From the NCBI GenBank assembly GCA_016871095.1, contig VFZS01000136.1:1-10251 (forward strand): a stretch of 10,251 nucleotides of DNA, read 5' to 3'. The first letter of the stretch is position 1; the number at the start of each line of letters is the position of its first letter. Positions 399-10,251 of this stretch are shown one piece after another. The DNA is from Acidobacteriota bacterium (lineage in GTDB: Bacteria > Acidobacteriota > Terriglobia > Bryobacterales > Bryobacteraceae). Made by a program: the position numbers and the translations under genes. The notes under the pieces were generated by a model that saw nothing but the letters and a program-made list of their open reading frames with translations, did no database searches and was not told the DNA's origin.

Positions 399-968
399 GT
401 GCCGCCGATGGCTGGATTCTTCACGCAGTTCTCCGCCCTGAGCATCTTCCTGGGGATCGCCGCCATCGGCTTTCTGTTCCTGCTGATCTCGCTGGTGTTC
501 GGCGAGATCTTCGAGCACCTGGGAGGCGGATTCGATCACGACGGCGGGCTGGATCACGCCCTGGACCACGGGGGTCCGGGCATCTTCAGCACCCGCATCC
601 TGGCCGTTTTCGTGACCGCGTTCGGAGGCTTCGGGGCCATCGGAACGCATTACGGAATGGGCCCGCTGCCTGCCTCGGGCCTGGGATTCGGCAGCGGCGT
701 GGTCTTCGCGTCCATCATTTATGCCTTTGCGCGCTTCCTGTGGGGCCAGCAGGCCAGCACCGAGGTGCGCACCGCGGACCTGGTGGGGCAGACCGCCCGG
801 GTGGTGGTGGGCATCCCGGCGGGCGGAATCGGCCAGGTGCGTTGCCGGCTGGGCGAGGGGCTCATCGACAAACTGGCCCGGGCTCAGGCCGACGAGGCCA
901 TTCCGGAGAACGCTGTGGTGCGCATCGAAGAGGTGCTGGGGGAAACCGTGATTGTCCGTAGACCTTAG
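399..968 (+). CDS. nfeD: NfeD-like membrane protein. It is the short YuaF/YqiJ type, with an N-terminal transmembrane region and a C-terminal OB-fold domain.
   Basis: The 189-aa ORF has three hydrophobic helices (FSALSIFLGIAAIGFLFLLISLVF; ILAVFVTAFGGFGAIG; GLGFGSGVVFASIIYAFARFLW). These are followed by a soluble C-terminal segment, VGQTARVVVGIPAGGIGQVRCRLGEGLIDKLARAQADEAIPENAVVRIEEVLGETVIV, typical of the NfeD C-terminal beta-barrel. It lies immediately upstream of an SPFH/flotillin gene, the canonical nfeD-floT pairing. There is a good SD. Confidence 0.8.
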   Translation: MPPMAGFFTQFSALSIFLGIAAIGFLFLLISLVFGEIFEHLGGGFDHDGGLDHALDHGGPGIFSTRILAVFVTAFGGFGAIGTHYGMGPLPASGLGFGSGVVFASIIYAFARFLWGQQASTEVRTADLVGQTARVVVGIPAGGIGQVRCRLGEGLIDKLARAQADEAIPENAVVRIEEVLGETVIVRRP

Positions 969-1004
969 CGTGCGGTTGTGGTTCTCAAAGGAGGGTTGCC
1001 CGTG

Positions 1005-2585
1005 ATGGAAGAGACGCTCTTCACCGAGTTTTCCCGCTTGTTGCTCCCGGTAGTGGTCCTGCTGGTGGTGATGGGTCTGTTCATTGCCGCCTGGCTGTTC
1101 AGCCGGAACTACCTGAAAGTATCGCCGAACGCCGTGGCCGTGCTGAGCGGCCGCAAGCGCAAGCTGGCGGACGGGCGGGTGGTGGGGTATCGCATGGTCA
1201 AGGGCGGAGCGGCCTTGAAGTTCCCGCTGCTGGAGAAGGTCGAGTATCTCTCCCTGAACGTAATGACCATCCCGCTGGAGATCAAGCGGGCGTATACGCT
1301 CAAGGGCGTGCCGGTCTCGGTCAAGGCGGTGGCCAACGTCAAGATCCGCAGCGACGACACCTCGTTGCAGGCCGCCGCCGAGCGCTTCCTGAGCATGACC
1401 CACGATCAGACTCAGAAGGTCATCTACCAGACGCTGGAAGGCCACTTGCGCTCCATCCTGGGAACCCTCACGGTGGAGGAGATCAACTCCGACCGGCAGA
1501 GCTTCGCGCAGAAGCTGACCAGTGAGGCGGCGGTGGATCTGGAGAAGATGGGCATCGGGGTGGACGTGCTGACCATCCAGGAGATCAGCGACGAGGAAGG
1601 CTACCTGGACGCGCTGGGCAAGCGCCGCACCGCCGAGGTCAAGCGCGATGCCACCATCGGCGAGGCCGAGGCCACCCGCGACGCCAAAATCAAATCCGCT
1701 CAGGCCCTCCAGGAAGGTGAGCGCGCCAAGTTCGCCGCCGACGCCGAGATCGCCCAGGCGGAGCGCGATTTCCAGATCCGGCAGGCCCAGTATCGAGCGG
1801 AAGTGGATACGCAGCAGGCGCGCGCCAAGCAGGCGGGTCCCTTGTCGGAGGCCCAGGCGCGCCAGGCGGTCGTGGCCGAGGAGGTCAAGGTCGAGTGCAC
1901 TCGCACGCAGGAATTGATCTCCGTGCAGGAGCAGGAGGTCCAGCGCAAGCAGAAGGAACTGGAAGCCACCGTCATCAAGCCCGCCGACGCCGAGCGGCAG
2001 GCCGCCATCGTCCGCGCCGAAGCCGCCAAGCAGGCCGCCATCCTCGAGGCCGAAGGCCGCCGTTCCGCGCTCATCGCCATGGCCGAGGCCGAACAGGAGA
2101 AACTGCGCAAGGAAGGCTTCGGAAGGGCCGCCGCCGTTGAGGTCGAAGGCAAGGCCGAGGCGTCCAGGATCGAGGCTGTGGGCCTGGCCCAGGCCAAGGC
2201 CATCGAAGCTCAGGGCGTCGCCGAAGCCGCCGCCATCCTGCGCAAGGCCGAAGCCTGGCAGCAGTTCAACGAGGCCGCCAAGCTCCAGACCATTCTGGAT
2301 AAGCTGCCGGCCATCTTGCAGGCTTCCACAGGCATCTTCGGAGCGGTGGCCGCGCCGCTGGGCAACATCGACAAGCTGGTGGTCATCGACCAGGGCGGTG
2401 GCGACGGCGGTGGCAGCGGAGCCGCGCGCCTGGCCAAGACCGGTCCGGCCATCGTGTTCAACCTGCTCCAGCAACTGGAGGCCCTGGGACTCAACCTCCC
2501 CGCCGTCGCCGCGCAGCTCGGCCTGAACATGTCCACCGGCGCCGCCAAGGAAGCGGAAAAACCGGAGCAGAAGACCGCCGGATGA
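1005..2585 (+). CDS. floT: Flotillin-like SPFH/Band-7 domain protein (FloT/YuaG-like)
   Basis: The product has an N-terminal TM helix (LLLPVVVLLVVMGLFIAAWLF), then an SPFH domain (VVGYRMVKGGAALKFPLLEKVEYLSLNVMTIPLEIKRAYTLKGVPVSVKAVANVKIRSDD...). A long Ala/Glu-rich coiled-coil (flotillin 'EA repeat') region follows, then a C-terminal tail. AGGAGG at 989-994 precedes in-frame GTG 1002 and ATG 1005. The track's GTG 978 start is less likely because it would overlap the SD. The gene lies 34-37 bp downstream of nfeD, consistent with an operon. Confidence 0.9.
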   Translation: MEETLFTEFSRLLLPVVVLLVVMGLFIAAWLFSRNYLKVSPNAVAVLSGRKRKLADGRVVGYRMVKGGAALKFPLLEKVEYLSLNVMTIPLEIKRAYTLKGVPVSVKAVANVKIRSDDTSLQAAAERFLSMTHDQTQKVIYQTLEGHLRSILGTLTVEEINSDRQSFAQKLTSEAAVDLEKMGIGVDVLTIQEISDEEGYLDALGKRRTAEVKRDATIGEAEATRDAKIKSAQALQEGERAKFAADAEIAQAERDFQIRQAQYRAEVDTQQARAKQAGPLSEAQARQAVVAEEVKVECTRTQELISVQEQEVQRKQKELEATVIKPADAERQAAIVRAEAAKQAAILEAEGRRSALIAMAEAEQEKLRKEGFGRAAAVEVEGKAEASRIEAVGLAQAKAIEAQGVAEAAAILRKAEAWQQFNEAAKLQTILDKLPAILQASTGIFGAVAAPLGNIDKLVVIDQGGGDGGGSGAARLAKTGPAIVFNLLQQLEALGLNLPAVAAQLGLNMSTGAAKEAEKPEQKTAG

Positions 2586-2614
2586 ACCGGGGCCTCGTCC
2601 CCGCTGCTTACCGG

Positions 2615-2636
2615 GTCCGCGGACCGCTCCGCGGTC
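2615..2636 (+). terminator. GC-rich hairpin downstream of the floT stop. It is a candidate intrinsic terminator with no T-tract.
   Basis: The sequence ccgcgga-ccgc-tccgcgg (7-bp perfect stem, 4-nt loop) lies at 2617-2634, 30 nt after the floT stop codon. There is no U-run after it, so it is weak by the E. coli model, though T-tracts are often absent in high-GC genomes. Confidence 0.2.
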
Positions 2637-2646
2637 GGCGTGGGCC

Positions 2647-2775
2647 TCACCCCGCCTTCAGCATCCCCACCACGGCGTTCACCAGGATGACCGCCATGCC
2701 CAGGGGGATCAGCCGCTTCCAGCCCACCTTCATGAGCTGGTCGTAGCGCAGGCGCGGCCAAGCGGCGCGGAAGCA
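2647..2775 (-). repeat. nuoH 3'-end copy A. It is the most complete copy (~125 bp) and has its own TGA stop.
   Basis: Copy A (2650-2770) aligns with the nuoH end (5089-5205) with only a few mismatches, most of them synonymous or conservative: ...cttcagcatccccaccacggcgttcaccaggatgaccgccatgcccagggggatcagccgcttccagcccaccttcatgagctggtcgtagcgcaggcgcggcca.... On the minus strand it encodes ...AAWPRLRYDQLMKVGWKRLIPLGMAVILVNAVVGMLKAG*, compared with the authentic ...ATWPRFRYDQLMNVGWKRLIPLGMAVILVNAVVGMLKG*. Confidence 0.8.
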
Positions 2776-2809
2776 GATCCCTCGGGAACGTTGGCGGGAT
2801 GCGGTTCGG

Positions 2810-3127
2810 CTACTGCTGTGGAAGACGCCGCACCACCCCATCCACCACCGTGATCAGCGCGTTCAGGCGCTCGTCGGTGTGTTGTTGCGTCTCGGCCAGC
2901 GTCAGCAGGGCAGCTCTCGTCTCCTGCTGGAACTGATCGAAGTGCTGGGCCAAACCTAGCTGATGCTCGGCCAGGCGCACCACCAAAGAACGCAACTCGG
3001 CGTGATCCTGCCGCAAGGCCGCCTGCTCCTTCTGCGTGGCCGCCTGCTGCTCTCTCATCTCCTGGAGGCCCGCCCAGAACTTGGCCTGCTGTTCCAGGAT
3101 GAACTCCATGGTGCGCTCGACATCCAT
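2810..3127 (-). CDS. Hypothetical 105-aa Q/E-rich helical (coiled-coil-like) protein. It is cargo of cassette 1.
   Basis: The ORF translates to MDVERTMEFILEQQAKFWAGLQEMREQQAATQKEQAALRQDHAELRSLVVRLAEHQLGLAQHFDQFQQETRAALLTLAETQQHTDERLNALITVVDGVVRRLPQQ. It lies cleanly between repeat copies A and B, in the same orientation as nuoH. An extended -10-like TGGTAGACT on the minus strand (3137-3145) sits 9 nt upstream of the ATG, so the mRNA may be leaderless. There is no SD. I do not recognise a family for this protein. Confidence 0.5.
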   Translation of the reverse strand: MDVERTMEFILEQQAKFWAGLQEMREQQAATQKEQAALRQDHAELRSLVVRLAEHQLGLAQHFDQFQQETRAALLTLAETQQHTDERLNALITVVDGVVRRLPQQ

Positions 3128-3136
3128 CGTGGTTCC

Positions 3137-3145
3137 AGTCTACCA
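3137..3145 (-). promoter_or_regulatory. Candidate extended -10 promoter element (TGgTAGACT) for the 105-aa gene
   Basis: The reverse complement of 3137-3145 is TGGTAGACT, which fits the TGnTAnnnT pattern. It is positioned so that transcription would start at about the ATG (3127). Confidence 0.25.
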
Positions 3146-3168
3146 CGCGGCGCACGCCGGCTGAGGCC

Positions 3169-3258
3169 TTACCACCCCTTCAGCATCCCCACCACGGCGT
3201 TCACCAGGATGACCGCCATGCCCAGGGGGATCAGCCGCTTCCAGCCCACGTTCGCCAC
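3169..3258 (-). repeat. nuoH 3'-end copy B. It is ~80 bp long, has a TAA stop, and diverges abruptly after the NVGWK codons.
   Basis: 3174-3250 (accccttcagcatccccaccacggcgttcaccaggatgaccgccatgcccagggggatcagccgcttccagcccacgttc) is identical to copy A over ~75 nt, apart from one position (acg versus acc). It then diverges abruptly. It encodes ...NVGWKRLIPLGMAVILVNAVVGMLKGW*. Confidence 0.8.
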
Positions 3259-3456
3259 CTGGAACGAGCCGCTGACCGCGCACGTGACCATCGGCGCGGC
3301 AATCAGGAGGACAAGAAGGATTGAATCGTTCTCGGCGCCATCCCCTCGGGGCTTCCCTGGGGGCAGGCCGGCCCCTGCTGAGGCCGCTCCAAACGGTGAT
3401 TCCACCAGGGTGCGGATCCTGGCTGGGCCCGAACCCCTGCCGTGCGGCTCCCAATC

Positions 3457-3465
3457 TGGTAGTCT
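3457..3465 (+). promoter_or_regulatory. Candidate extended -10 promoter element (TGgTAGTCT) for the coiled-coil gene
   Basis: TGGTAGTCT lies 23 nt upstream of ATG 3489. An SD-like AGGTGA (3478-3483) lies 5 nt before the ATG. The sequence is the same nonamer as on the minus strand at 3137-3145, differing at one position. Confidence 0.3.
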
Positions 3466-3488
3466 ATGCCGTTAGGCAGGTGATACGT

Positions 3489-4517
3489 ATGGCTGCGAAA
3501 ACCGTGAAGGCCCCCGCCCGCTCCAGGCGGTCTAAGACCGATGTTGCTGAGGAGTTCTCCGGCATCCGAAAGGAGGTCGAAGGCGCCCGGCTGGTTGCGG
3601 ACGCCAAGGCCGCGGAAGCAGCCGCCCTCCGCGAGACTGAAATCCGCCAGGCGGTCGAAGGACTCTCGGTCGAAACCGTAGTCCAGCGCATCTCCGGTCT
3701 CGGCCTTGAGATCTCGAGAGCCTTGTCGGAAGTCTCCTCCCGGCTGGCCGAGGAAGTGGAGCGTCTGGCCGCCGTGCGTGAGGCCGTCGCCATCGAGCGC
3801 AAAGAACTCGAGCGGCTGCATAAGATCGATGTCGCCGCCACCGCGCTCGATCAGATGGTGCAGGATTTCGTTCGCGAGAAGGAGCGGCTGGAGGCCGAGA
3901 TCGCGGCCGGGCGCACCGCGTGGGAGGAGGAAACCCGCGCTGCGGAGCGTGAGCGCCGCGAGCAGGAAGAAAGCCTGAAGAAACAGCGCCAGCGCGAAAT
4001 CGACGAGTACGAGTACAAGAAGACCCTCGAGCGCAAGAAGGCCCAGGACAAGTACGAAGAAGACCTGCGGCTTCTGGAAAGGAAGAATAAGGAGAAGCAG
4101 GAAGCTCTCGAGAAGGACTGGCAGCAGCGCGCGGCGGCTCTCCACGAAGGGGAACAAGAGCTGCTCGCTTTGCGCAAGGAGGTGGCGGAATTCCCGGCGC
4201 GTCTGCGGGCCGAGGTCGATCAGGCGGTGGCGCGGGCCCTACGGGAGACCGAAGCAAAGTCCCAGCAAGAGATTGTGCTTCTCAAGAGAGACGCCGAGTC
4301 GGAAAAGCGGCTGGCCGAATTGCGGGTTAATACGTTCGAGGAGTTGGTCGCCCGCCAGGCCACGCAGATTGCGGCACTCCAGAAACAGCTCGATGAGGCC
4401 AAGCAGCAGGTCCAGGACATCGCCCTGAAGGCCATCGAGGGCGCCTCCGGCGCCAAGGCGCTCGCCCACATCAACCAAATCGCCATGGAGCAGGCCAAGA
4501 GCCGCCCGCAAACTTAA
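3489..4517 (+). CDS. Hypothetical 342-aa coiled-coil protein, rich in K, E and R. It is cargo of cassette 2.
   Basis: The protein begins MAAKTVKAPARSRRSKTDVAEEFSGIRKEVEGARLVADAKAAEAAALRETEIRQAVEGL.... It continues through EEETRAAERERREQEESLKKQRQREIDEYEYKKTLERKKAQDKYEEDLRLLERKNKEKQEALEKDWQQR and ends ...QLDEAKQQVQDIALKAIEGASGAKALAHINQIAMEQAKSRPQT. There is heptad-like helical character throughout and no TM segment. The start is taken at ATG 3489 because it has an SD. The track's 3321 start would add 56 Pro/Gly/Arg-rich residues typical of off-frame GC-rich translation. GC is locally lower (about 52-60% around 3960-4140) because of AAG/GAG codons. Confidence 0.6.
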   Translation: MAAKTVKAPARSRRSKTDVAEEFSGIRKEVEGARLVADAKAAEAAALRETEIRQAVEGLSVETVVQRISGLGLEISRALSEVSSRLAEEVERLAAVREAVAIERKELERLHKIDVAATALDQMVQDFVREKERLEAEIAAGRTAWEEETRAAERERREQEESLKKQRQREIDEYEYKKTLERKKAQDKYEEDLRLLERKNKEKQEALEKDWQQRAAALHEGEQELLALRKEVAEFPARLRAEVDQAVARALRETEAKSQQEIVLLKRDAESEKRLAELRVNTFEELVARQATQIAALQKQLDEAKQQVQDIALKAIEGASGAKALAHINQIAMEQAKSRPQT

Positions 4518-4590
4518 GCGGGGCGGAGAACTGCACGGTGGTCAGGCCGACCCGAGCCGCCTGCCGTTCGCATCGGCGCGCACATGTGCA

Positions 4591-4692
4591 TGGCAGCCCC
4601 GTTCACCAGGATCACCGCCGTGCCCAGGGGGATCAGCCGCTTCCAGCCCGCGTTCATGAGCTGGCCGTAGCGCAGGCGCGGCCAGGTGGGCC
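4591..4692 (-). repeat. nuoH 3'-end copy C. It is ~100 bp long, more diverged, and lacks the stop-proximal ~25 bp.
   Basis: The copy reads cgttcaccaggatcaccgccgtgcccagggggatcagccgcttccagcccgcgttcatgagctggccgtagcgcaggcgcggccaggt. It shares the gatcagccgc and gcgcaggcgcgg variants with copy A rather than with the gene-attached end. It encodes ...WPRLRYGQLMNAGWKRLIPLGTAVILVNGAAM and then loses homology. It has no stop-proximal MLKG segment. Confidence 0.7.
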
Positions 4693-4699
4693 ACTGGCA

Positions 4700-4705
4700 T
4701 ATACT
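4700..4705 (+). promoter_or_regulatory. Candidate -10 hexamer (TATACT) upstream of the UPF0175-like gene
   Basis: TATACT lies ~55 nt upstream of ATG 4761. A strong SD, GGGAGGG (4747-4753), sits 7 nt before the ATG. No clear -35 was found. A sigma54-like TGGCAT..TGCA overlap was considered and rejected. Confidence 0.25.
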
Positions 4706-4760
4706 GGGTGCAGAACCACCCCCAGGCACGCGGGTTGCCTGAGGCAGGGAGGGCCCAGCG

Positions 4761-5021
4761 ATGAGCACGTTGACTGTTGAACTCGACCCGGAACTCGTGA
4801 CGCTGCTCGAGGGCCTTGAACGTCCGATCCAGGAGACCGCGCGCGAGCTGATCGTGCTGGAACTCTACCGAAGGGGAGCGGTCTCCAGCGGAAGGGCGGC
4901 CGAGTTGCTGGGGCTGTCACGGGAGTCCTTCCTCGACCTGGCCTCGCGGCTCGGCGTCCCGTATTTCCGCTTGACTGAGGCCGAACTGGAGCAGGAAGGC
5001 CGTCACAGCAAGTCCCTCTGA
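4761..5021 (+). CDS. UPF0175-family antitoxin-like small protein (86 aa). It is cargo of cassette 3.
   Basis: The translation is MSTLTVELDPELVTLLEGLERPIQETARELIVLELYRRGAVSSGRAAELLGLSRESFLDLASRLGVPYFRLTEAELEQEGRHSKSL. The segment ELYRRG-x-S-x-GRAAELLGLS-x-xxFLDLLxxxGVP matches the UPF0175 signature as I recall it (canonically ...LYRRGKISLGKAAELAGMSRWEFLELL..GIP). There is a strong SD. The gene is convergent with nuoH, and its stop lies 63 bp from the nuoH stop codon. Confidence 0.7.
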   Translation: MSTLTVELDPELVTLLEGLERPIQETARELIVLELYRRGAVSSGRAAELLGLSRESFLDLASRLGVPYFRLTEAELEQEGRHSKSL

Positions 5022-5084
5022 CAGGTTGCTCTGAGCGGCCGGCGAGAGAGGGGCTGGTGCCCGCGATCGAAGCGGCGCTGCCCA

Positions 5085-6263
5085 CTACCCCTTCAGCATC
5101 CCCACCACGGCGTTCACCAGGATGACCGCCATGCCCAGGGGGATGAGGCGCTTCCAGCCCACGTTCATGAGCTGGTCGTAGCGGAACCGCGGCCAGGTCG
5201 CCCGGAACCAGATGATGGCGTAAACCACCACCGCCACCTTGAGGAAGAACCAGAACAGGCCGATGACCGCGGCGTTCACCACCGGCACCACGAAGACCAG
5301 TCCCAGGAACACCAGGGCCAGCCCCACCAGGCGCAGGAACATGGCGTTGAGCCGGCTCTTGAGCCGGCCCGCCAGCGGGAAGCACATCACCCCGGAGCCT
5401 GCCATCAGCGCCAGCGGCAGGCCGTAGTTGAGCGGATACTCCAGCCACCCCACGCTGGGGAAGGGCCGCAGCCACCCGCCCCAGAACAGCGTCACCGCCA
5501 CCGCGGAGACCACGAAGATGTTGACGTACTCGGCCAAAAAGTACAGCGCCCAGCGGAACCCGCTGTACTCGGTCATGAAGCCGGCCACCAGCTCGGACTC
5601 GGCCTCGGGCAGATCGAAGGGCGCGCGGTTGGTCTCGGCGATGGCCGCGATCAGGTAGATCACGAAAGGCAGCAGCATCAGCCCGTAGTTCTCGAAGGCA
5701 AACCACACGCCGCGCTCCTGCTGCGCCCGCACGATGCCGGCCAGGCTGAGCGTGCCCGCCATCATCACGCCGTTGAGCAGGCCAAACGCCAGGGCCACTT
5801 CGTAGCTGATCAACTGCGCGCCGCCGCGCAGCGTCCCCAACAGCGCATAGTGGCTGTTGGCCGACCAGCCCCCCAGCACGATGCCCAGCACGCCCACCGC
5901 CGACATCGAGGAAATCACCAGCAGCCCCACGTTCACGTCGGCCACCTGGACGTGCTGGCTGAAGGGCAGCACCGAGAGCGCGGTCAGCGCGGTGAAAGTC
6001 GAGATGCAGGGCGCCATCCAGTACAGGAAGCGGTCGGAGTCCGCCGGCATCAGGTCTTCCTTGAGCAGCAGCTTGAGGGCATCGGCCAGCGGTTGCAAAA
6101 TCCCGTGCGGGCCTACCCGCATGGGCCCCAGCCGCGCCTGGAAGTCGCCCAGCAGCTTGCGCTCGGCCAGCACCATGTAGCCGGCGATCAAGGGAAAGGC
6201 CACCACCATCACGCCCGACAGGACCAGCGCGATCACCAGCGGATGCAGGAGGAAGTTCAGCAT
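5085..6263 (-). CDS. nuoH: NADH-quinone oxidoreductase subunit H (complex I ND1 homologue)
   Basis: The 392-aa product carries hallmark NuoH motifs. These are the N-terminal ...AERKLLGDFQARLGPMRVGP, EYSGFRWALYFLAEY, and the C-terminal RATWPRFRYDQLMNVGWKRLIPLGMAVIL. Its start lies 6 bp after the nuoN stop. Confidence 0.95.
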   Translation of the reverse strand: MLNFLLHPLVIALVLSGVMVVAFPLIAGYMVLAERKLLGDFQARLGPMRVGPHGILQPLADALKLLLKEDLMPADSDRFLYWMAPCISTFTALTALSVLPFSQHVQVADVNVGLLVISSMSAVGVLGIVLGGWSANSHYALLGTLRGGAQLISYEVALAFGLLNGVMMAGTLSLAGIVRAQQERGVWFAFENYGLMLLPFVIYLIAAIAETNRAPFDLPEAESELVAGFMTEYSGFRWALYFLAEYVNIFVVSAVAVTLFWGGWLRPFPSVGWLEYPLNYGLPLALMAGSGVMCFPLAGRLKSRLNAMFLRLVGLALVFLGLVFVVPVVNAAVIGLFWFFLKVAVVVYAIIWFRATWPRFRYDQLMNVGWKRLIPLGMAVILVNAVVGMLKG

Positions 6264-6269
6264 AGCAAG

Positions 6270-7739
6270 TTACCGCGCCAGGGAAGTCTGCGCCAGCCGC
6301 AGAAACGGTTCCGGATAGACTCCGATAACCAATGTAAGAATGCCGGTTATGCCGAGCGCCAACCGCAACCCATAACTGGAAGCCACCGGCACGCGGTCGG
6401 CCTCCTCGCCGGCGAACATGCTACGCACCACCCGGAAGTAGTAGTACACCGCCACGGCCGCGTACAGCGTCCCGATCACCGCCAGCACGTAATGCCGGGT
6501 CTCGATCAGCGCCAGGAAAATGTAATACTTGCCCAGGAAGCCCGCGGTGGGCGGGATGCCGGCCAGCGACACCAGGAAGATCAGCATCAACACCGCGTGC
6601 ATGGGGCTCTTCTTCATCAGCCCGCCCAGATCATCGAGGTCCTCCCCCAACAACTCCTCGCGCCGCAGCGCCACCACCACCAGGAACGCCCCGAGCGTCA
6701 TGAAGGTGTACACCAGCACGTACACCGCGACGCCCTTCAGGCCGGTGGGATTGCCCGCCACCACCCCCAGCAGAATGTAGCCCGCGTGCGAGATCGAGCT
6801 ATAGGCCAGCAGCCGCTTGATGTTGGTCTGAGTGATGGCCGCCAGATTGCCCAGCGTCAGCGTGGCCACCGCGATGACGGCCAGCAGCGGCTCCCACACC
6901 TCCCGCAGCGTCCACAGCGGCCCGGTGAAGAGCCTCATCAGCAGCGCGAAGGAGGCCGCCTTGGAGCCCACCGCCAGGTAGGCGGTCACCGGCGTGGGCG
7001 CGCCCTCGTAGGCGTCCGGCGCCCACATGTGGAAAGGCACGGCCGAGACCTTGAAGAGCAGCCCCACCATGGTGGTGGCCAGCGCCAGGAACACCAGCGG
7101 ATCCCAAAGGTCGCGCGCCTGTATGGCCAGCGCCACGTCCCGCAGCCGCGTCGAGCCGGCCAGCCCGTACATCACCGAGAAACCGTAGGCCAGAAACCCG
7201 CTCGAAAACGCGCCCAGCAGCAGGTACTTCATGGCCGCTTCGTTCGAGCGGCGGTCGGCTCGCAGGAAGCCCACCAGCACGTAGAAGCACAGGGCCATCA
7301 GTTCCAGGCCCACGAACACCGTCACCAGGTCCGTGCCCGTGGCCAGGAAGAACATGCCGCAGTTGGCCAGCAGGATCAGCCCGTAGTACTCGCCGTGGTG
7401 CTCGCCTTCGATCTCCAGGAAGCGGTAGGACACCACCGCCACGATGAAGGACGCCGCCAGAAACACCCAGTTGAAGAACAGCGAGAAGCCGTCGATGGTG
7501 AGAGCGCCCTGGAAGGCGCTGATCTGGGTCAGGCCCTGCTGCGCCAGGTAGCTCTGCTGCCGCCACAGCCCCAGTCCGGTGAAAGCCTGCCCGATCACCA
7601 CGAACACCAGCAGCCAGCGGCGGTGACGGAGGCCGGGCGCCAGCAGGAAGTCGAACAGCAGCACCGCGCAGCCGAACAGCGCCAGCATGATGGCGGGCAC
7701 CAGCGCGAAGTGGTCCAGGGAGGTGTAGTACTGGCTCAT
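6270..7739 (-). CDS. nuoN: NADH-quinone oxidoreductase subunit N (ND2 homologue)
   Basis: The 489-aa polytopic membrane protein begins MSQYYTSLDHFALVPAIMLALFG.... It has typical antiporter-like NuoN helices. Its ATG overlaps the nuoM stop (ATGA, 7736-7739), indicating translational coupling. Confidence 0.9.
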   Translation of the reverse strand: MSQYYTSLDHFALVPAIMLALFGCAVLLFDFLLAPGLRHRRWLLVFVVIGQAFTGLGLWRQQSYLAQQGLTQISAFQGALTIDGFSLFFNWVFLAASFIVAVVSYRFLEIEGEHHGEYYGLILLANCGMFFLATGTDLVTVFVGLELMALCFYVLVGFLRADRRSNEAAMKYLLLGAFSSGFLAYGFSVMYGLAGSTRLRDVALAIQARDLWDPLVFLALATTMVGLLFKVSAVPFHMWAPDAYEGAPTPVTAYLAVGSKAASFALLMRLFTGPLWTLREVWEPLLAVIAVATLTLGNLAAITQTNIKRLLAYSSISHAGYILLGVVAGNPTGLKGVAVYVLVYTFMTLGAFLVVVALRREELLGEDLDDLGGLMKKSPMHAVLMLIFLVSLAGIPPTAGFLGKYYIFLALIETRHYVLAVIGTLYAAVAVYYYFRVVRSMFAGEEADRVPVASSYGLRLALGITGILTLVIGVYPEPFLRLAQTSLAR

Positions 7740-9301
7740 CGAGCGGCCTCCATGGCGGGCGCGCGGTTAGAGGCGGCGGGCGGGTGGAGGGCCGCCGCCC
7801 TGCCAGCGAAGTAACCCGGGCGGACGCGCTCGACGATCTGCGCCACCGGCTTCTCCAGCACGTCAAAGTACGGCTTGGGATACACGCCGATCCAGACGGC
7901 CCACGCGATAAGCGGCAGGAAAGTCGCCAGCTCGCGCAGGTTCAGATCGGGCAGCCGCCGGTTCTTCTCGTTGGTGACCTCGCCCAGCATCGTGCGCTGA
8001 TAGAGCCACAGCAAGTAGGCCGCGCCCAGGATCACCCCGGTGACGGCCAGCGCCGCCCAGGTCCGGCTGGCCTCGAAGGCCCCTTGCAGGATGGTGAACT
8101 CCCCGATGAACCCGTTCAGCAGCGGCAACCCGGCGGAGCTAAGCATGGCAATGGCGAAGACCACCGCGTACACCGGCATCACGTGGCCCAGTCCGCCGTA
8201 GTCCTTGATCTCCCGGGTGTGCCGCCGCTCGTAGATGATGCCCACGATCAAGAACAGCATGCCGGTCGAGATCCCGTGGTTGATCTGCTGGATCACGCTC
8301 CCGGCCAGGCCGTTGGGGTTGAGCGCGAAGATGCCCAGCGTGCAGAAACCCAGGTGACTTACCGACGAGTAAGCGACCAGTTTCTTCCAGTCCTGCTGCA
8401 TCAGGCTGACCAAGGCCCCGTAGATAATGCCGATGATCGACAGCGCGGCCAGCACCTGCACGATGACCACGTTGGCGGAAGCCTGAGGCAACAGCGGCAG
8501 CGAGAAGCGGATGAACCCGTAGGTCCCCATCTTCAGCAGGACGCTGGCCAGCACCACCGACCCGGCCGTGGGCGCCTCCACGTGCGCGTCCGGCAGCCAG
8601 GTGTGGAAGGGGAACATGGGCACCTTGATGGCGAAGCCGATGAAGAAGGCCCAGAAGACCCACTGCTCCAGGCCGGGCGAGAGGTTGAGCTTCATCAGCT
8701 CCGAGATCTCGAAAGTGTAGAAACCCCGCTGCTGAAAGTGCTGCAAGTACAGCGTCAGGATGCCCAGCAGCATCAGCGTGCCGCCCGCCAGCGTGTACAG
8801 AAAGAACTTGATCGCCGCGTACAGCTTCCGCGGCCCGCCCCACACCCCGATGATAAAGTACATCGGCACCAGGACCACTTCCCAGAACACGAAGAACATG
8901 AAGAAGTCCAGGGCCACGAACACCCCGATCATCCCGGTCTGCTGGAGCAGGAACATGGCGTAGTATTCCTTGACCCGCTCCTGGACCGCGCTCCAGCTCG
9001 ACAGGATGGCCAGCATGCCCACCAGCGTGGTGAGCATCACCAGCAGCAGGCTGATGCCGTCGATGCCGATGTAGTATTTCACTCCCAGGGCGGGAATCCA
9101 GTCCGCGCGCTCGACAAACTGGAAGCCGTCGGCGTGCTTGTCGAAACGGAATACCAGCGGCAGCGAAACCAGGAACCCGGCCAGCGCGGCCAGGTTGGCC
9201 CACCACCGGATCAGGTTCTTCTTCGAGGCGGGGAGCAGCAACAGCACCGCCATGCCGACCAGCGGCGTGAACAGAACCCAACTCAGCCAGTGAGAGCCCA
9301 T
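7736..9301 (-). CDS. nuoM: NADH-quinone oxidoreductase subunit M (ND4 homologue)
   Basis: The 521-aa product begins MGSHWLSWVLFTPLVGMAVLLLLPA.... It contains ...YYIGIDGISLLLVMLTTLVGMLAILSSW..., VLVPMYFIIGVWGG, and other NuoM/ND4 antiporter-like motifs. It starts 4 bp after the nuoL stop. Confidence 0.9.
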   Translation of the reverse strand: MGSHWLSWVLFTPLVGMAVLLLLPASKKNLIRWWANLAALAGFLVSLPLVFRFDKHADGFQFVERADWIPALGVKYYIGIDGISLLLVMLTTLVGMLAILSSWSAVQERVKEYYAMFLLQQTGMIGVFVALDFFMFFVFWEVVLVPMYFIIGVWGGPRKLYAAIKFFLYTLAGGTLMLLGILTLYLQHFQQRGFYTFEISELMKLNLSPGLEQWVFWAFFIGFAIKVPMFPFHTWLPDAHVEAPTAGSVVLASVLLKMGTYGFIRFSLPLLPQASANVVIVQVLAALSIIGIIYGALVSLMQQDWKKLVAYSSVSHLGFCTLGIFALNPNGLAGSVIQQINHGISTGMLFLIVGIIYERRHTREIKDYGGLGHVMPVYAVVFAIAMLSSAGLPLLNGFIGEFTILQGAFEASRTWAALAVTGVILGAAYLLWLYQRTMLGEVTNEKNRRLPDLNLRELATFLPLIAWAVWIGVYPKPYFDVLEKPVAQIVERVRPGYFAGRAAALHPPAASNRAPAMEAAR

Positions 9302-9305
9302 GGAA

Positions 9306-10251
9306 TCAACGCATCAGATAGTAACCGAAAATCAGCGCCACGCCCAGCACAAATACCAGCGCATAGACCTGCACATATCCGGTCTGTAACACCCGCGCCG
9401 GGAAGGAAGACATCTTAACGAGGAAGGAGGACAGGCGCACCGCCCCGTCCACGATCCAGGTGTCCCACCAGATGCTCACCCGCGAGGCGAAGCGCGTCAG
9501 CCAGCCCGTGCCGTTCACCCCGCCGTCCACCACGGCGTTGTCGAAGGCGGCCAGGGCCGAGCCGCCGCCCTTGGACAGGCCGTTCACGAAAAGCAGGTCG
9601 TACAGCTCGTCCACGTACCACTTGTTGTAGGCCCAGGTGTAGACCCGCCCGGCGGCCTGCTTCAGCGCTTCAGCCTGCTCCGGGCGGCGCTGGTAGAGCC
9701 GCCAGGCCAGGGCGATGCCCGCACCCGCCACAACCACCGAAAGCAGCATGAGCAGCCACTCCAGCGAGGCCGAGTGCGCGTGCTCTTCCGCGCCGTGCGC
9801 GGCGTGCCCGCCCACCACCGGCTCGAGCCAGTGTTCGAAGGTGCGGAACGCCTCCGGGAACGCGCTCCACAGCTTGGGAACTCCTATCCAGCCGGCCACG
9901 ATGCTGCCCATCGCCAGCGCCACCAGCGGCAGTGTCATCACGCGCGGCGACTCGTGCATGTGCGCGGCTGCCTTCGGCTCCACCCGGCTCTGCCCGTAGA
10001 AGGTCAGCGCCATCAGCCGCCACATGTAAAAGGCCGTCATTCCCGCCGTGGCCACTCCCACCAGCCACAGCCACACCGAGCCACCGCTGAAGGCCTGCCA
10101 CAGTATCTCGTCCTTCGAGAAGAATCCCGCCAGCCCGGGCACGCCGGCGATGGCCAGCGTCCCCGCCAGCATGGTCCAGTGGGTGGCGGGGATCTTGTCC
10201 TTCAAGCCTCCCATGCGCCGCATGTCCTGCTCGCCGGAGAGGGCGTGAATC
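9306..10251 (-). CDS. nuoL: NADH-quinone oxidoreductase subunit L (ND5 homologue). This is the C-terminal portion; the gene continues beyond the right edge of the window.
   Basis: The ORF reads through the window end. The reverse complement of the final bases gives IHALSGEQDMRRMGGLKDKIPATHWTMLAGTLAIAGVPGLAGFFSKDEIL..., the conserved NuoL 'SGEQDMRKMGGL' region. The track's M at 10223 is internal. The C-terminus is ...VLGVALIFGYYLMR*. Confidence 0.9.
   Translation of the reverse strand, partial: IHALSGEQDMRRMGGLKDKIPATHWTMLAGTLAIAGVPGLAGFFSKDEILWQAFSGGSVWLWLVGVATAGMTAFYMWRLMALTFYGQSRVEPKAAAHMHESPRVMTLPLVALAMGSIVAGWIGVPKLWSAFPEAFRTFEHWLEPVVGGHAAHGAEEHAHSASLEWLLMLLSVVVAGAGIALAWRLYQRRPEQAEALKQAAGRVYTWAYNKWYVDELYDLLFVNGLSKGGGSALAAFDNAVVDGGVNGTGWLTRFASRVSIWWDTWIVDGAVRLSSFLVKMSSFPARVLQTGYVQVYALVFVLGVALIFGYYLMR

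Follow-up and report, generated by a model that had tools for sequence, protein, structure and literature searches.

In Escherichia coli, phage 21 and e14 replace the 3' end of icd with a substitute end that differs mainly synonymously from the original. In these icd prophages, which are complete or defective, the displaced host end stays at the far junction, an integrase gene is adjacent, and there is a single fixed crossover region. A related arrangement was found behind the respiratory gene nuoH in the 10,251-nt contig VFZS01000136.1 of an Acidobacteriota bacterium (assembly GCA_016871095.1); this whole stretch of DNA is called the window below. Three small cassettes have entered there in succession behind nuoH, each accompanied by a spare copy of the final 25-45 codons of the gene, and these copies of the nuoH 3' end separate them. 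We propose that this array would have been built by repeated insertion-duplication at the nuoH 3' end through host homologous recombination, a proposal in which we place about as much belief as doubt. Like phage 21 and e14, the nuoH inserts appear to bring a substitute gene end; unlike them, they come without a prophage or an adjacent integrase gene. They held one to three small cargo genes and no integrase, phage or conjugation gene, and the sole link to a phage was a match to PHROG family phrog_29668.

Integrons and clusters of attC sites lacking integron integrases (CALINs) are arrays of tiny, mostly one-gene cassettes, rich in toxin-antitoxin genes, with sites of 60-140 bp and an integrase that is sometimes not nearby. 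The attC sites are folding imperfect palindromes (R''-L''...L'-R') and not host gene copies, and integron cassettes usually lie in one orientation and are mostly promoterless. The nuoH array resembles these systems in its small, toxin-antitoxin-rich cassettes separated by repeats. Unlike the integron sites, the nuoH repeat is host coding sequence without a conserved fold or an R-box-like inverted core, and no GTTRRRY/RYYYAAC pair was seen in it by eye. Pfam gave no integrase-family match, and hence no intI integrase gene with attI, in the window genes or in the arrays of seven relatives, a negative that by itself does not exclude a CALIN, since CALINs lack intI. The cargo strands were mixed (4761-5021 and 3489-4517, plus; 2810-3127, minus). 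With no intI, no attC-like structure and mixed cargo orientation, the locus does not answer to the description of an integron.

Cis-mobilizable elements (CIMEs) are decayed integrative and conjugative elements (ICEs) or integrative and mobilizable elements (IMEs). They measure several kb, use fixed att sites and are moved by the integrase of a related element; tandem accretion is exemplified by ICESt1/CIME at fda in Streptococcus thermophilus and by tRNA-Lys islands (PMC5704250). As in CIME accretion, the nuoH inserts are separated by direct repeats of the target 3' end, the gene is kept intact by an end that the insert would supply, and the inserts lack integration genes of their own. Unlike CIMEs, the nuoH cassettes are only 0.4-1.4 kb, no integrase-bearing partner was seen at the site in the relatives surveyed, and the duplicated nuoH fragment varies from 26 to ~190 codons. 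Pfam searches found no remnant of an integrase, relaxase or transfer gene in any cassette.

Additive flexible genomic islands of Alteromonas have a fixed site and variable cassette combinations, with a post-segregational killing system (zeta toxin) among the cargo; a partial repeat of the target gene marks some insertions, and divergent genomes can carry nearly identical cassettes (PMC4898812). The nuoH locus answers to this description of an additive island or hotspot. The same two borders, nuoH and flotillin, enclose different cassettes in the window and in the relatives L084, L090 and L095, and a partial repeat of the target gene lies downstream of the inserted cassette. Unlike the Alteromonas islands, which have mostly tRNA or tmRNA targets and usually larger cassettes, the nuoH site is a protein-coding respiratory gene whose repeats retain a reading frame showing selection. 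The locus is a fairly ordinary insertion hotspot, unusual in its tiny toxin-antitoxin cassettes and lack of a recombinase gene; it further differs from the known cases in its respiratory protein-coding target, which ends a cluster of unusual order, nuoL-M-N-H, and in its variable fragment length.

The array spans 2.5 kb, separates nuoH from the flotillin gene, and contains three extra nuoH 3' ends, all oriented as nuoH. Each cassette is bounded by two direct nuoH-end copies, in the order nuoH / UPF0175 antitoxin / C / coiled-coil gene / B / ORF105 / A / flotillin. The features, from nuoH outward, were as follows.

5085-6263, minus strand: nuoH (392 aa; Pfam NADHdh, 2.7e-110), the last gene of its cluster, with the insertions at its 3' end
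5085-5213, minus strand: resident (gene-attached) repeat copy, codons 351-392 plus TAG (direct-repeat search, codon alignment)
4691-5084: cassette 1, 394 bp, between the resident stop and copy C
4761-5021, plus strand: UPF0175-family antitoxin-like gene, 86 aa, cargo of cassette 1 (Pfam PF03683, 4e-16; PADLOC PDC-S70, 6.7e-9)
4600-4690, minus strand: copy C, nuoH codons 356-384 only (TWPRLRYGQLMNAGWKRLIPLGTAVILVN), without tail or stop
3254-4599: cassette 2, ~1.35 kb; the end of C and the start of B on its two sides overlap by 54 bp (nuoH codons 367-384)
3489-4517, plus strand: coiled-coil protein gene, 342 aa, cargo of cassette 2 (PHROG phrog_29668, 5.7e-21)
3169-3253, minus strand: copy B, nuoH codons 367-392 plus an extra Trp codon and TAA (codon alignment)
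2779-3168: cassette 3, 390 bp
2810-3127, minus strand, as nuoH: ORF105, a helical 105-aa protein belonging to no family, cargo of cassette 3 (76 homologs)
2647-2778, minus strand: copy A, the most distal copy and probably the earliest end to be displaced; nuoH codons 351-392, an added Ala codon and TGA

The four nuoH-end copies were 85-131 nt long and mutually 89-99% identical, far above chance. Upstream of copy B, 20 of 36 positions (3254-3289) still matched nuoH codons 355-366.

The four-copy array was also present, with equal spacing, in independent assemblies from other samples, covering 4.9 kb in contig L003 (99.84% identity) and 2.6 kb in contig L002 (98.1%). Contig L001 contained the junction of nuoH with cassette 1. 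The array is real and no assembly artefact. An artefact would mean that strain variants downstream of nuoH had been joined through the shared gene end, and it could draw on the fact that contigs L001 and L002 terminate within or close to repeats and that the placement of variants within the repeats varies by assembly. However, three assemblies from different samples gave equal order and spacing, unique junctions lay on both sides of each copy, and comparable arrays were found in metagenome-assembled genomes (MAGs) and metagenome contigs of unrelated studies; we consider such an origin hardly credible. Comparison with L001 gave an overall identity of 99.6%, with 20 of 22 differences within 330 nt of nuoM (8570-8899), a cluster that resembles a tract acquired by recombination with a divergent allele. 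Comparison with L002 showed 35 differences in 190 nt of ORF105 (2876-3065; ~18% divergence) between identical flanks, and this block reads as a further imported tract, within a cargo gene. Cassette 2 with copy C (1437 nt) was 100% identical in L002.

Extra nuoH ends were sought in 80 related species-representative genomes, and arrays were found in three of them (L056, L006 and L012). Closer relatives were found through ORF105 homologs and short nuoH-fragment proteins, the latter route being informative for L095 and L096. The layouts were as follows.

L056: nuoH / HicB / copy / HicA-HicB / copy / EEP nuclease and 196-aa gene / copy (three extra copies)
L006: nuoH / HicA-HicB / copy / 396-aa gene
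L012: nuoH / MNT nucleotidyltransferase / decayed copy
L084: nuoM-N-H / three unknown genes / copy / ORF105 / 151-aa gene / flotillin
L090: copy / HEPN-MNT / copy / BrnT-BrnA / 155-codon nuoH fragment / DUF3368-UPF0175 / 32-nt remnant / coiled-coil gene / ORF105 / flotillin
L095: decayed copy / HigB-HigA / copy / DUF3368-UPF0175 / nuoH fragment (codons ~205-237 fused to 340-392) / 145-aa gene / flotillin
L096, of another lineage: nuoH / 6.8-kb insert (622-7440) / copy of codons 319-392

One extra nuoH-end copy each was present in L006, L012 and L096. On these comparisons, the nuoH end is evidently a recurrent insertion hotspot in Bryobacteraceae, with cargo that consists mostly of toxin-antitoxin parts. 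The insert of L096 encoded a 1099-aa CHAT-TPR protein, an extracytoplasmic function (ECF) sigma factor and a DUF2283 gene; its 222-bp nuoH repeat was ~97% identical up to GTGAACGC, and the last 8 codons diverged. In L093, L094 and L097, nuoH and neighbouring nuo genes were split into short open reading frames (ORFs) or gapped. These broken genes are most likely assembly errors, and therefore the short 'NADHdh' proteins in public sets are partly not real fragments. The three frameshifted or gapped, error-prone assemblies, and L098, which stops at a contig end, were dropped as sources of arrays.

The HicAB unit gave evidence for movement of a cassette. This unit, [nuoH codons ~367-stop]-hicA-hicB-[codons 359-377], was 92% identical between L006 and L056 (hicA 97-100%), against 80% identity of their nuoH genes; apart from these, the surroundings did not align. 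Its right end was present in L095 too. Judged from these identities, at least one cassette, HicAB, evidently moves horizontally, and both boundaries of the shared segment lie within the nuoH repeat, which fits a unit recombining there. The HicA relatives L099 and L100 (77-81% identity) lay at other loci without gene-end repeats and were uninformative on the vehicle. In L099, a 32-nt palindromic element, GAAYTGTAGGGGCATGGCGTGCCATGCCCTCC, occurred twice (4002-4033 and 4541-4572) around a 174-aa gene; it may be a repetitive extragenic palindrome (REP)-like element or a terminator, unrelated to the nuoH array.

Part of the array is old. The segment UPF0175-C-coiled-coil gene of the window (5021-3366) was collinear with L090 at 85% identity, and the flotillin gene and nuoH were equally diverged; the segment was evidently inherited vertically. 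The linkage of B to ORF105 was common to L084, and B was orthologous to the L084 copy before ORF105. Orthology of the sequence past copy A with that past the last copy of L095 was considered and left unused, as the two were only ~55-60% similar beyond the stop.

The repeat copies were compared by Nei-Gojobori counts on a codon alignment, with ancestral states guided by the sequences of relatives. An earlier note, made from the sequence of the window, had described the copies as differing from the resident end mainly at synonymous sites, each with its own stop codon. The variant strings that it quoted were all present: the resident end had GATGAGGCGC at 5143-5152, and copies A, B and C had GATCAGCCGC at 2708-2717, 3230-3239 and 4632-4641, respectively; A and C had GCGCAGGCGCGG where the resident had GCGGAACCGCGG. 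The tails MLKG* (resident), MLKAG* (A) and MLKGW* (B) were likewise as described. The separate stops were TAG in the resident (5085-5087), TGA in A (2647-2649) and TAA in B (3169-3171), which makes three stops for four copies, since C has none.

Resident and A differed at 11 positions over 41 codons, nine of them third, two first and none second codon positions. This corresponded to 7 synonymous and 4 nonsynonymous differences (Sd and Nd), with a ratio of nonsynonymous to synonymous proportions (pN/pS) of 0.19 (binomial P=0.007). Resident and B had 2 differences, both synonymous. Copy C had three private second-position replacements (D363G, V368A and M378T), the A-C pN/pS was 0.89, and homology stopped after codon 384, the last 8 codons and the stop being gone. 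The predominance of synonymous change thus applies to A and B and not to C. Neutral decay, with differences spread at random over codon positions and with frameshifts, was not the pattern found between resident and A, which showed the third-position excess; the homologous stretches held no frameshift, and C deviated.

When the changes were assigned to branches, the resident branch received 3 synonymous ones (CGC to CGG at 354 and 359; GCC to GCG at 355) and no replacement. The A branch had ~4 synonymous changes and 4 replacements (W352C, T356A, F360L and N367K), of which W352C, T356A and N367K fall on otherwise conserved residues, N367 being variable in few relatives only. The pooled resident-A ratio masks this asymmetry, and the replacements at conserved residues suggest that A is now decaying. 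Copy A therefore looks like a formerly working end in decay, and C, by its sequence, is a truncated and decaying one. The distal position of A, its tail MLKAG* and the logic of insertion make it more likely that A is a displaced older end rather than a newcomer, and that the end now attached to the gene arrived later. The tail MLKAG* was identical to the resident NuoH tail of L056.

The alternative in-frame tails G*, AG* and GW* might also suggest programmed switching of the NuoH C-terminus, with silent cassettes of the kind known from pilin or shufflon systems. The copies encode essentially one peptide, however, and they are direct repeats only, between which recombination deletes and does not switch. 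Moreover, C is truncated, the cargo is unrelated to respiration, and no invertase or recombinase gene was present; of all the explanations considered, this one has the least to recommend it.

The relatives clarified the origin of the ends. In L090, the truncated fragments c2 and c3 (91.7% nucleotide identity) differed by 16 synonymous and 3 conservative replacement codons over 84, and 7 of 9 variable sites among its three copies were synonymous (P=0.0013). Since c2 and c3 cannot both be the working gene, they must have diverged within working nuoH genes and been joined recently; copies from different working nuoH alleles thus stand in one array. In L084, the resident and the copy differed by 7 synonymous and 3 replacement changes. 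The old distal copies L056 c4 and L095 c1 had ratios near 0.9, which points to decay. The proof of imported functional ends, read from these substitutions, comes only from the relative L090. The data support the view that the copies mark successive insertions, each probably supplying a replacement nuoH end.

The view in the earlier note that the copies evolved as functional ends under purifying selection elsewhere thus held for the L090 fragments, while in the window A is decaying and C is truncated. Its denial of a decaying local duplication was borne out by the differing cassettes of relatives, the sharing of HicAB and the L090 fragments. Tandem duplications of the nuoH end that decayed in place and later received unrelated genes would explain why the window copies were closer to each other (89-99%) than to any nuoH end of the 80 genomes (<=86%), and would suit the replacements of A and C at conserved residues. 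This explanation is contradicted by the synonymous excess between resident and A, stronger still in L090, by the HicAB cassette with its flanking half-repeats common to genomes with 80% identical nuoH, and by the variation of cassette content among close relatives at the same site; we regard it as very improbable.

Element-borne ends from different donor lineages had also been suggested. Replacement ends were found, but a donor from another taxon was not visible when the copies were compared one by one. The locus is no integrative element of the ordinary kind, as neither this array nor that of any relative had an integrase gene inside it or adjoining it. Each window copy was closest to the other window copies, followed by the ends of L090, L084 and L095 (up to 95%). 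On these identities, the donors, if any, would be close relatives and not another taxon. For a viral origin, exact-pattern scans with a 48-nt core and peptide scans of viral contigs gave as the sole weak match L092, which corresponded to nuoH residues outside the repeat, and this candidate was rejected.

Copy B need not be a chimera of A-like and resident-like variants, as had been proposed: AAG367 and the extra GCG were private to A, and the 'GGG T..' tail of B is the state of the relatives. The variants of B were also unstable between assemblies. Copy B of L003 carried the resident-type GATGAGGCGC (diagnostic pair CGG CTG versus CGC CTC) despite the 99.84% identity, and copy B of L002 had the C-type ACG and GTG. 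The sequences indicate either gene-conversion polymorphism or unreliable short-read assembly in the copies; fine-scale inferences from such variants are therefore unsafe.

Campbell-type insertion-duplication, as obtained in the laboratory with a suicide plasmid carrying a 3' fragment, leaves an intact gene, the insert and a 5'-truncated copy. The nuoH locus has this topology, which is compatible with two enzymologies, host homologous recombination and a site-specific recombinase. We know of no named natural system of toxin-antitoxin cassettes spreading in this way. Under the proposed mechanism, the incoming DNA would be a small circle on which a nuoH 3' fragment is joined to one, two or three cargo genes, for the most part components of toxin-antitoxin systems. 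One crossover within the nuoH homology would place the cargo directly after an intact nuoH, whose new tail would derive from the incoming DNA, and would displace the earlier nuoH end downstream as a 5'-truncated copy. Repeated rounds could produce the order from nuoH to A seen in the window. The displaced copies would be unselected and subject to decay (A, C), trimming or gene-conversion patching from neighbours. The copy length would equal that of the fragment cloned in such an insertion, which would explain the variable fragment lengths at nuoH.

We infer a circular intermediate and a crossover by host homologous recombination, not by a dedicated site-specific recombinase. Host homologous recombination is favoured because of the variable fragment starts, the several break points, the lack of a recombinase gene, the lack of a conserved fold, and the signs of gene conversion and recombination tracts. 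The retained nuoH fragments started at codons ~205, 238, ~310, 319, 351-359 and 367, and homology or identity broke at codons 367, 377/378 and 384/385. No integrase, transposase or resolvase gene was found in the window, and Pfam detected no recombinase gene in any of 8 arrays (the window, L056, L006, L012, L084, L090, L095 and L096). A filtered set of 96 ORFs, lying up to 4.5 kb downstream of nuoH at Bryobacterales loci, showed no recurrent integrase family (Pfam; families with >=2 ORFs reported); the families there were housekeeping ones (DUF2461, MurB, SpoIIE and others). Sense-strand hairpins of the window repeat had z scores of -2.7 and -2.1, and RNAalifold on 57 resident ends gave ~0 kcal/mol and no covarying pair. 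The probable gene conversion among copies and the putative tracts in nuoM and ORF105 fit homologous recombination and favour it.

The same array could have been produced by a site-specific recombinase acting in trans, with the nuoH end as the attachment site. The cassettes would then be integrase-less, decayed islands accreted in tandem (cis-mobilizable) or integron-like minimal cassettes, and the integrase would be encoded elsewhere or on a visiting element. The topology is that of attL-cargo-attR with a replaced gene end, as in elements that use gene 3' ends (PMC5704250), and the cassettes are very small, with a single gene or a toxin-antitoxin pair, as in integrons. The HicAB cassette boundaries were identical in three genomes, and the L096 insertion restored the 8-codon tail exactly at GTGAACGC. 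Fragments of 26 to ~190 codons, break points at at least three positions and a site without an inverted-repeat core or conserved hairpin stand against it, as do the missing recombinase gene in or beside the 8 arrays, the lack of a recurrent one downstream of nuoH in the surveyed relatives, and the absence of the site from every viral contig scanned. We consider a recombinase in trans a genuine possibility, of lesser probability.

Several points weigh against host homologous recombination and the insertion-duplication built on it. A circular form, an empty site or an alternative cassette order was not observed in a metagenome scan that yielded two other contigs. RecA crossovers would be inefficient between repeats of 85-130 bp that are only 85-95% identical. 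A single integrase could escape a Pfam survey that lists only families with >=2 ORFs, and a recombinase encoded elsewhere in the genome is invisible from these contigs. Copy starts recurred at codon 367 (window B and L056 c2), breaks fell right after GTGAACG, at codon 384, in window C and L096, and many copy starts clustered at codons 351-359; such recurring boundaries would be expected of a defined site acted on by a recombinase in trans. Of the 351-359 starts, several shared the TGG-to-TGC change at codon 352, and these starts may be related by descent as one lineage. TGAACG occurred twice in the repeat, 51 nt apart, and the pair could support microhomology events. Inspection by eye suggested an 18-nt direct-repeat motif close to each end of cassette 2; the repeat search did not report this motif, and it was dropped. 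A perfect 10-bp palindrome (GCACATGTGC) was present at 4580-4589, 11 nt off the junction of copy C and cassette 2.

The UPF0175 gene was an orphan in the window, with its stop 63 nt from the nuoH stop. In L090 and L095, a DUF3368 (PIN-like) toxin gene was paired with UPF0175 and occupied this position, and this toxin was not in the window. Cassette 1 thus holds an antitoxin-like gene only, without the adjacent toxin gene of a type II toxin-antitoxin module; judged from the relatives, the window appears to have deleted the DUF3368 toxin and retained the antitoxin. The match of the coiled-coil protein to phrog_29668, a phage family of unknown function, was nearly full length. The 342-aa protein had no significant Pfam match (FAM184 at E=0.007, below the cutoff) and no match in PADLOC, NCBIfam or PDB, and its ortholog in L090 was 91% identical. 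None of the 76 homologs of ORF105 had a Pfam domain, and in related contigs, as in L084 and L090, ORF105 adjoined the gene for flotillin. The G+C content of the cargo was 61-67%, the same as that of the flanks.

On the minus strand, the window encodes nuoL (partial), nuoM, nuoN and nuoH (5085-10251), with nuoH last. The order in L084 and L093 was 30kDa-49kDa-Fer4(nuoI)-nuoJ-nuoK-nuoL-M-N-H. In the canonical complex I order, nuoH lies between nuoG and nuoI. With nuoH at the end of the operon, its 3' end is exposed to insertions. The far side of the array is formed by convergent genes and an inverted repeat.

2610-2635: GC-rich inverted repeat CCGCGGACCGCTCCGCGG, in the gap that separates copy A from the convergent flotillin gene (read from the sequence)
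978-2585, plus strand: flotillin/SPFH gene (Pfam Band_7, Flot), the right-hand border of the array
399-968, plus strand: NfeD gene, adjoining the flotillin gene

The inverted repeat is possibly the original terminator region; it was unscored in the terminator scan. The NfeD-flotillin pair (399-2585) was the conserved far border, and the flotillin border was common to L084, L090 and L095. A gene of 145-151 aa lay between the last nuoH copy or ORF105 and flotillin in L084 and L095, with a weak Pro_CA_2 match in L084, and was absent from the window. Promoter and terminator scans, Rfam, a tRNA scan and the base composition of the window gave nothing informative. The nearest nuoH genes among the 80 species-representative genomes had 59-85% protein identity and belonged to Bryobacteraceae and Solibacteraceae MAGs, and an exact NuoH match was found on a Joint Genome Institute (JGI) freshwater metagenome contig. 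The organism is an uncultured member of the Bryobacteraceae (Acidobacteriota).

A broader idea, which we put forward as a speculation with the balance clearly against it, is that Bryobacteraceae possess a cassette system, integron-like without integron parts, whose universal docking site is the last ~40 codons of the housekeeping gene nuoH. If this were true, tiny, mostly toxin-antitoxin cassettes would each bear a working spare nuoH end, and insertion would be harmless to the host. Ordinary homologous recombination, or else a recombinase not yet discovered and encoded outside the arrays, would carry the cassettes from species to species, and selection on the spare end would be a built-in property of the mobile unit. 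Interest in the locus rises if the cassettes move independently of a recombinase or by a new recombinase in trans. If homologous recombination alone suffices, insertion-duplication would be a general route of gene gain that is missed by surveys based on integrases and transposases. The displaced gene ends form a small fossil record, in which synonymous versus replacement changes give recent function and the order of insertion. Through a safe site behind an essential operon, used without a recombinase gene in the arrays, this uncultured, little-studied soil and freshwater lineage appears to gather and exchange toxin-antitoxin and other small accessory genes.

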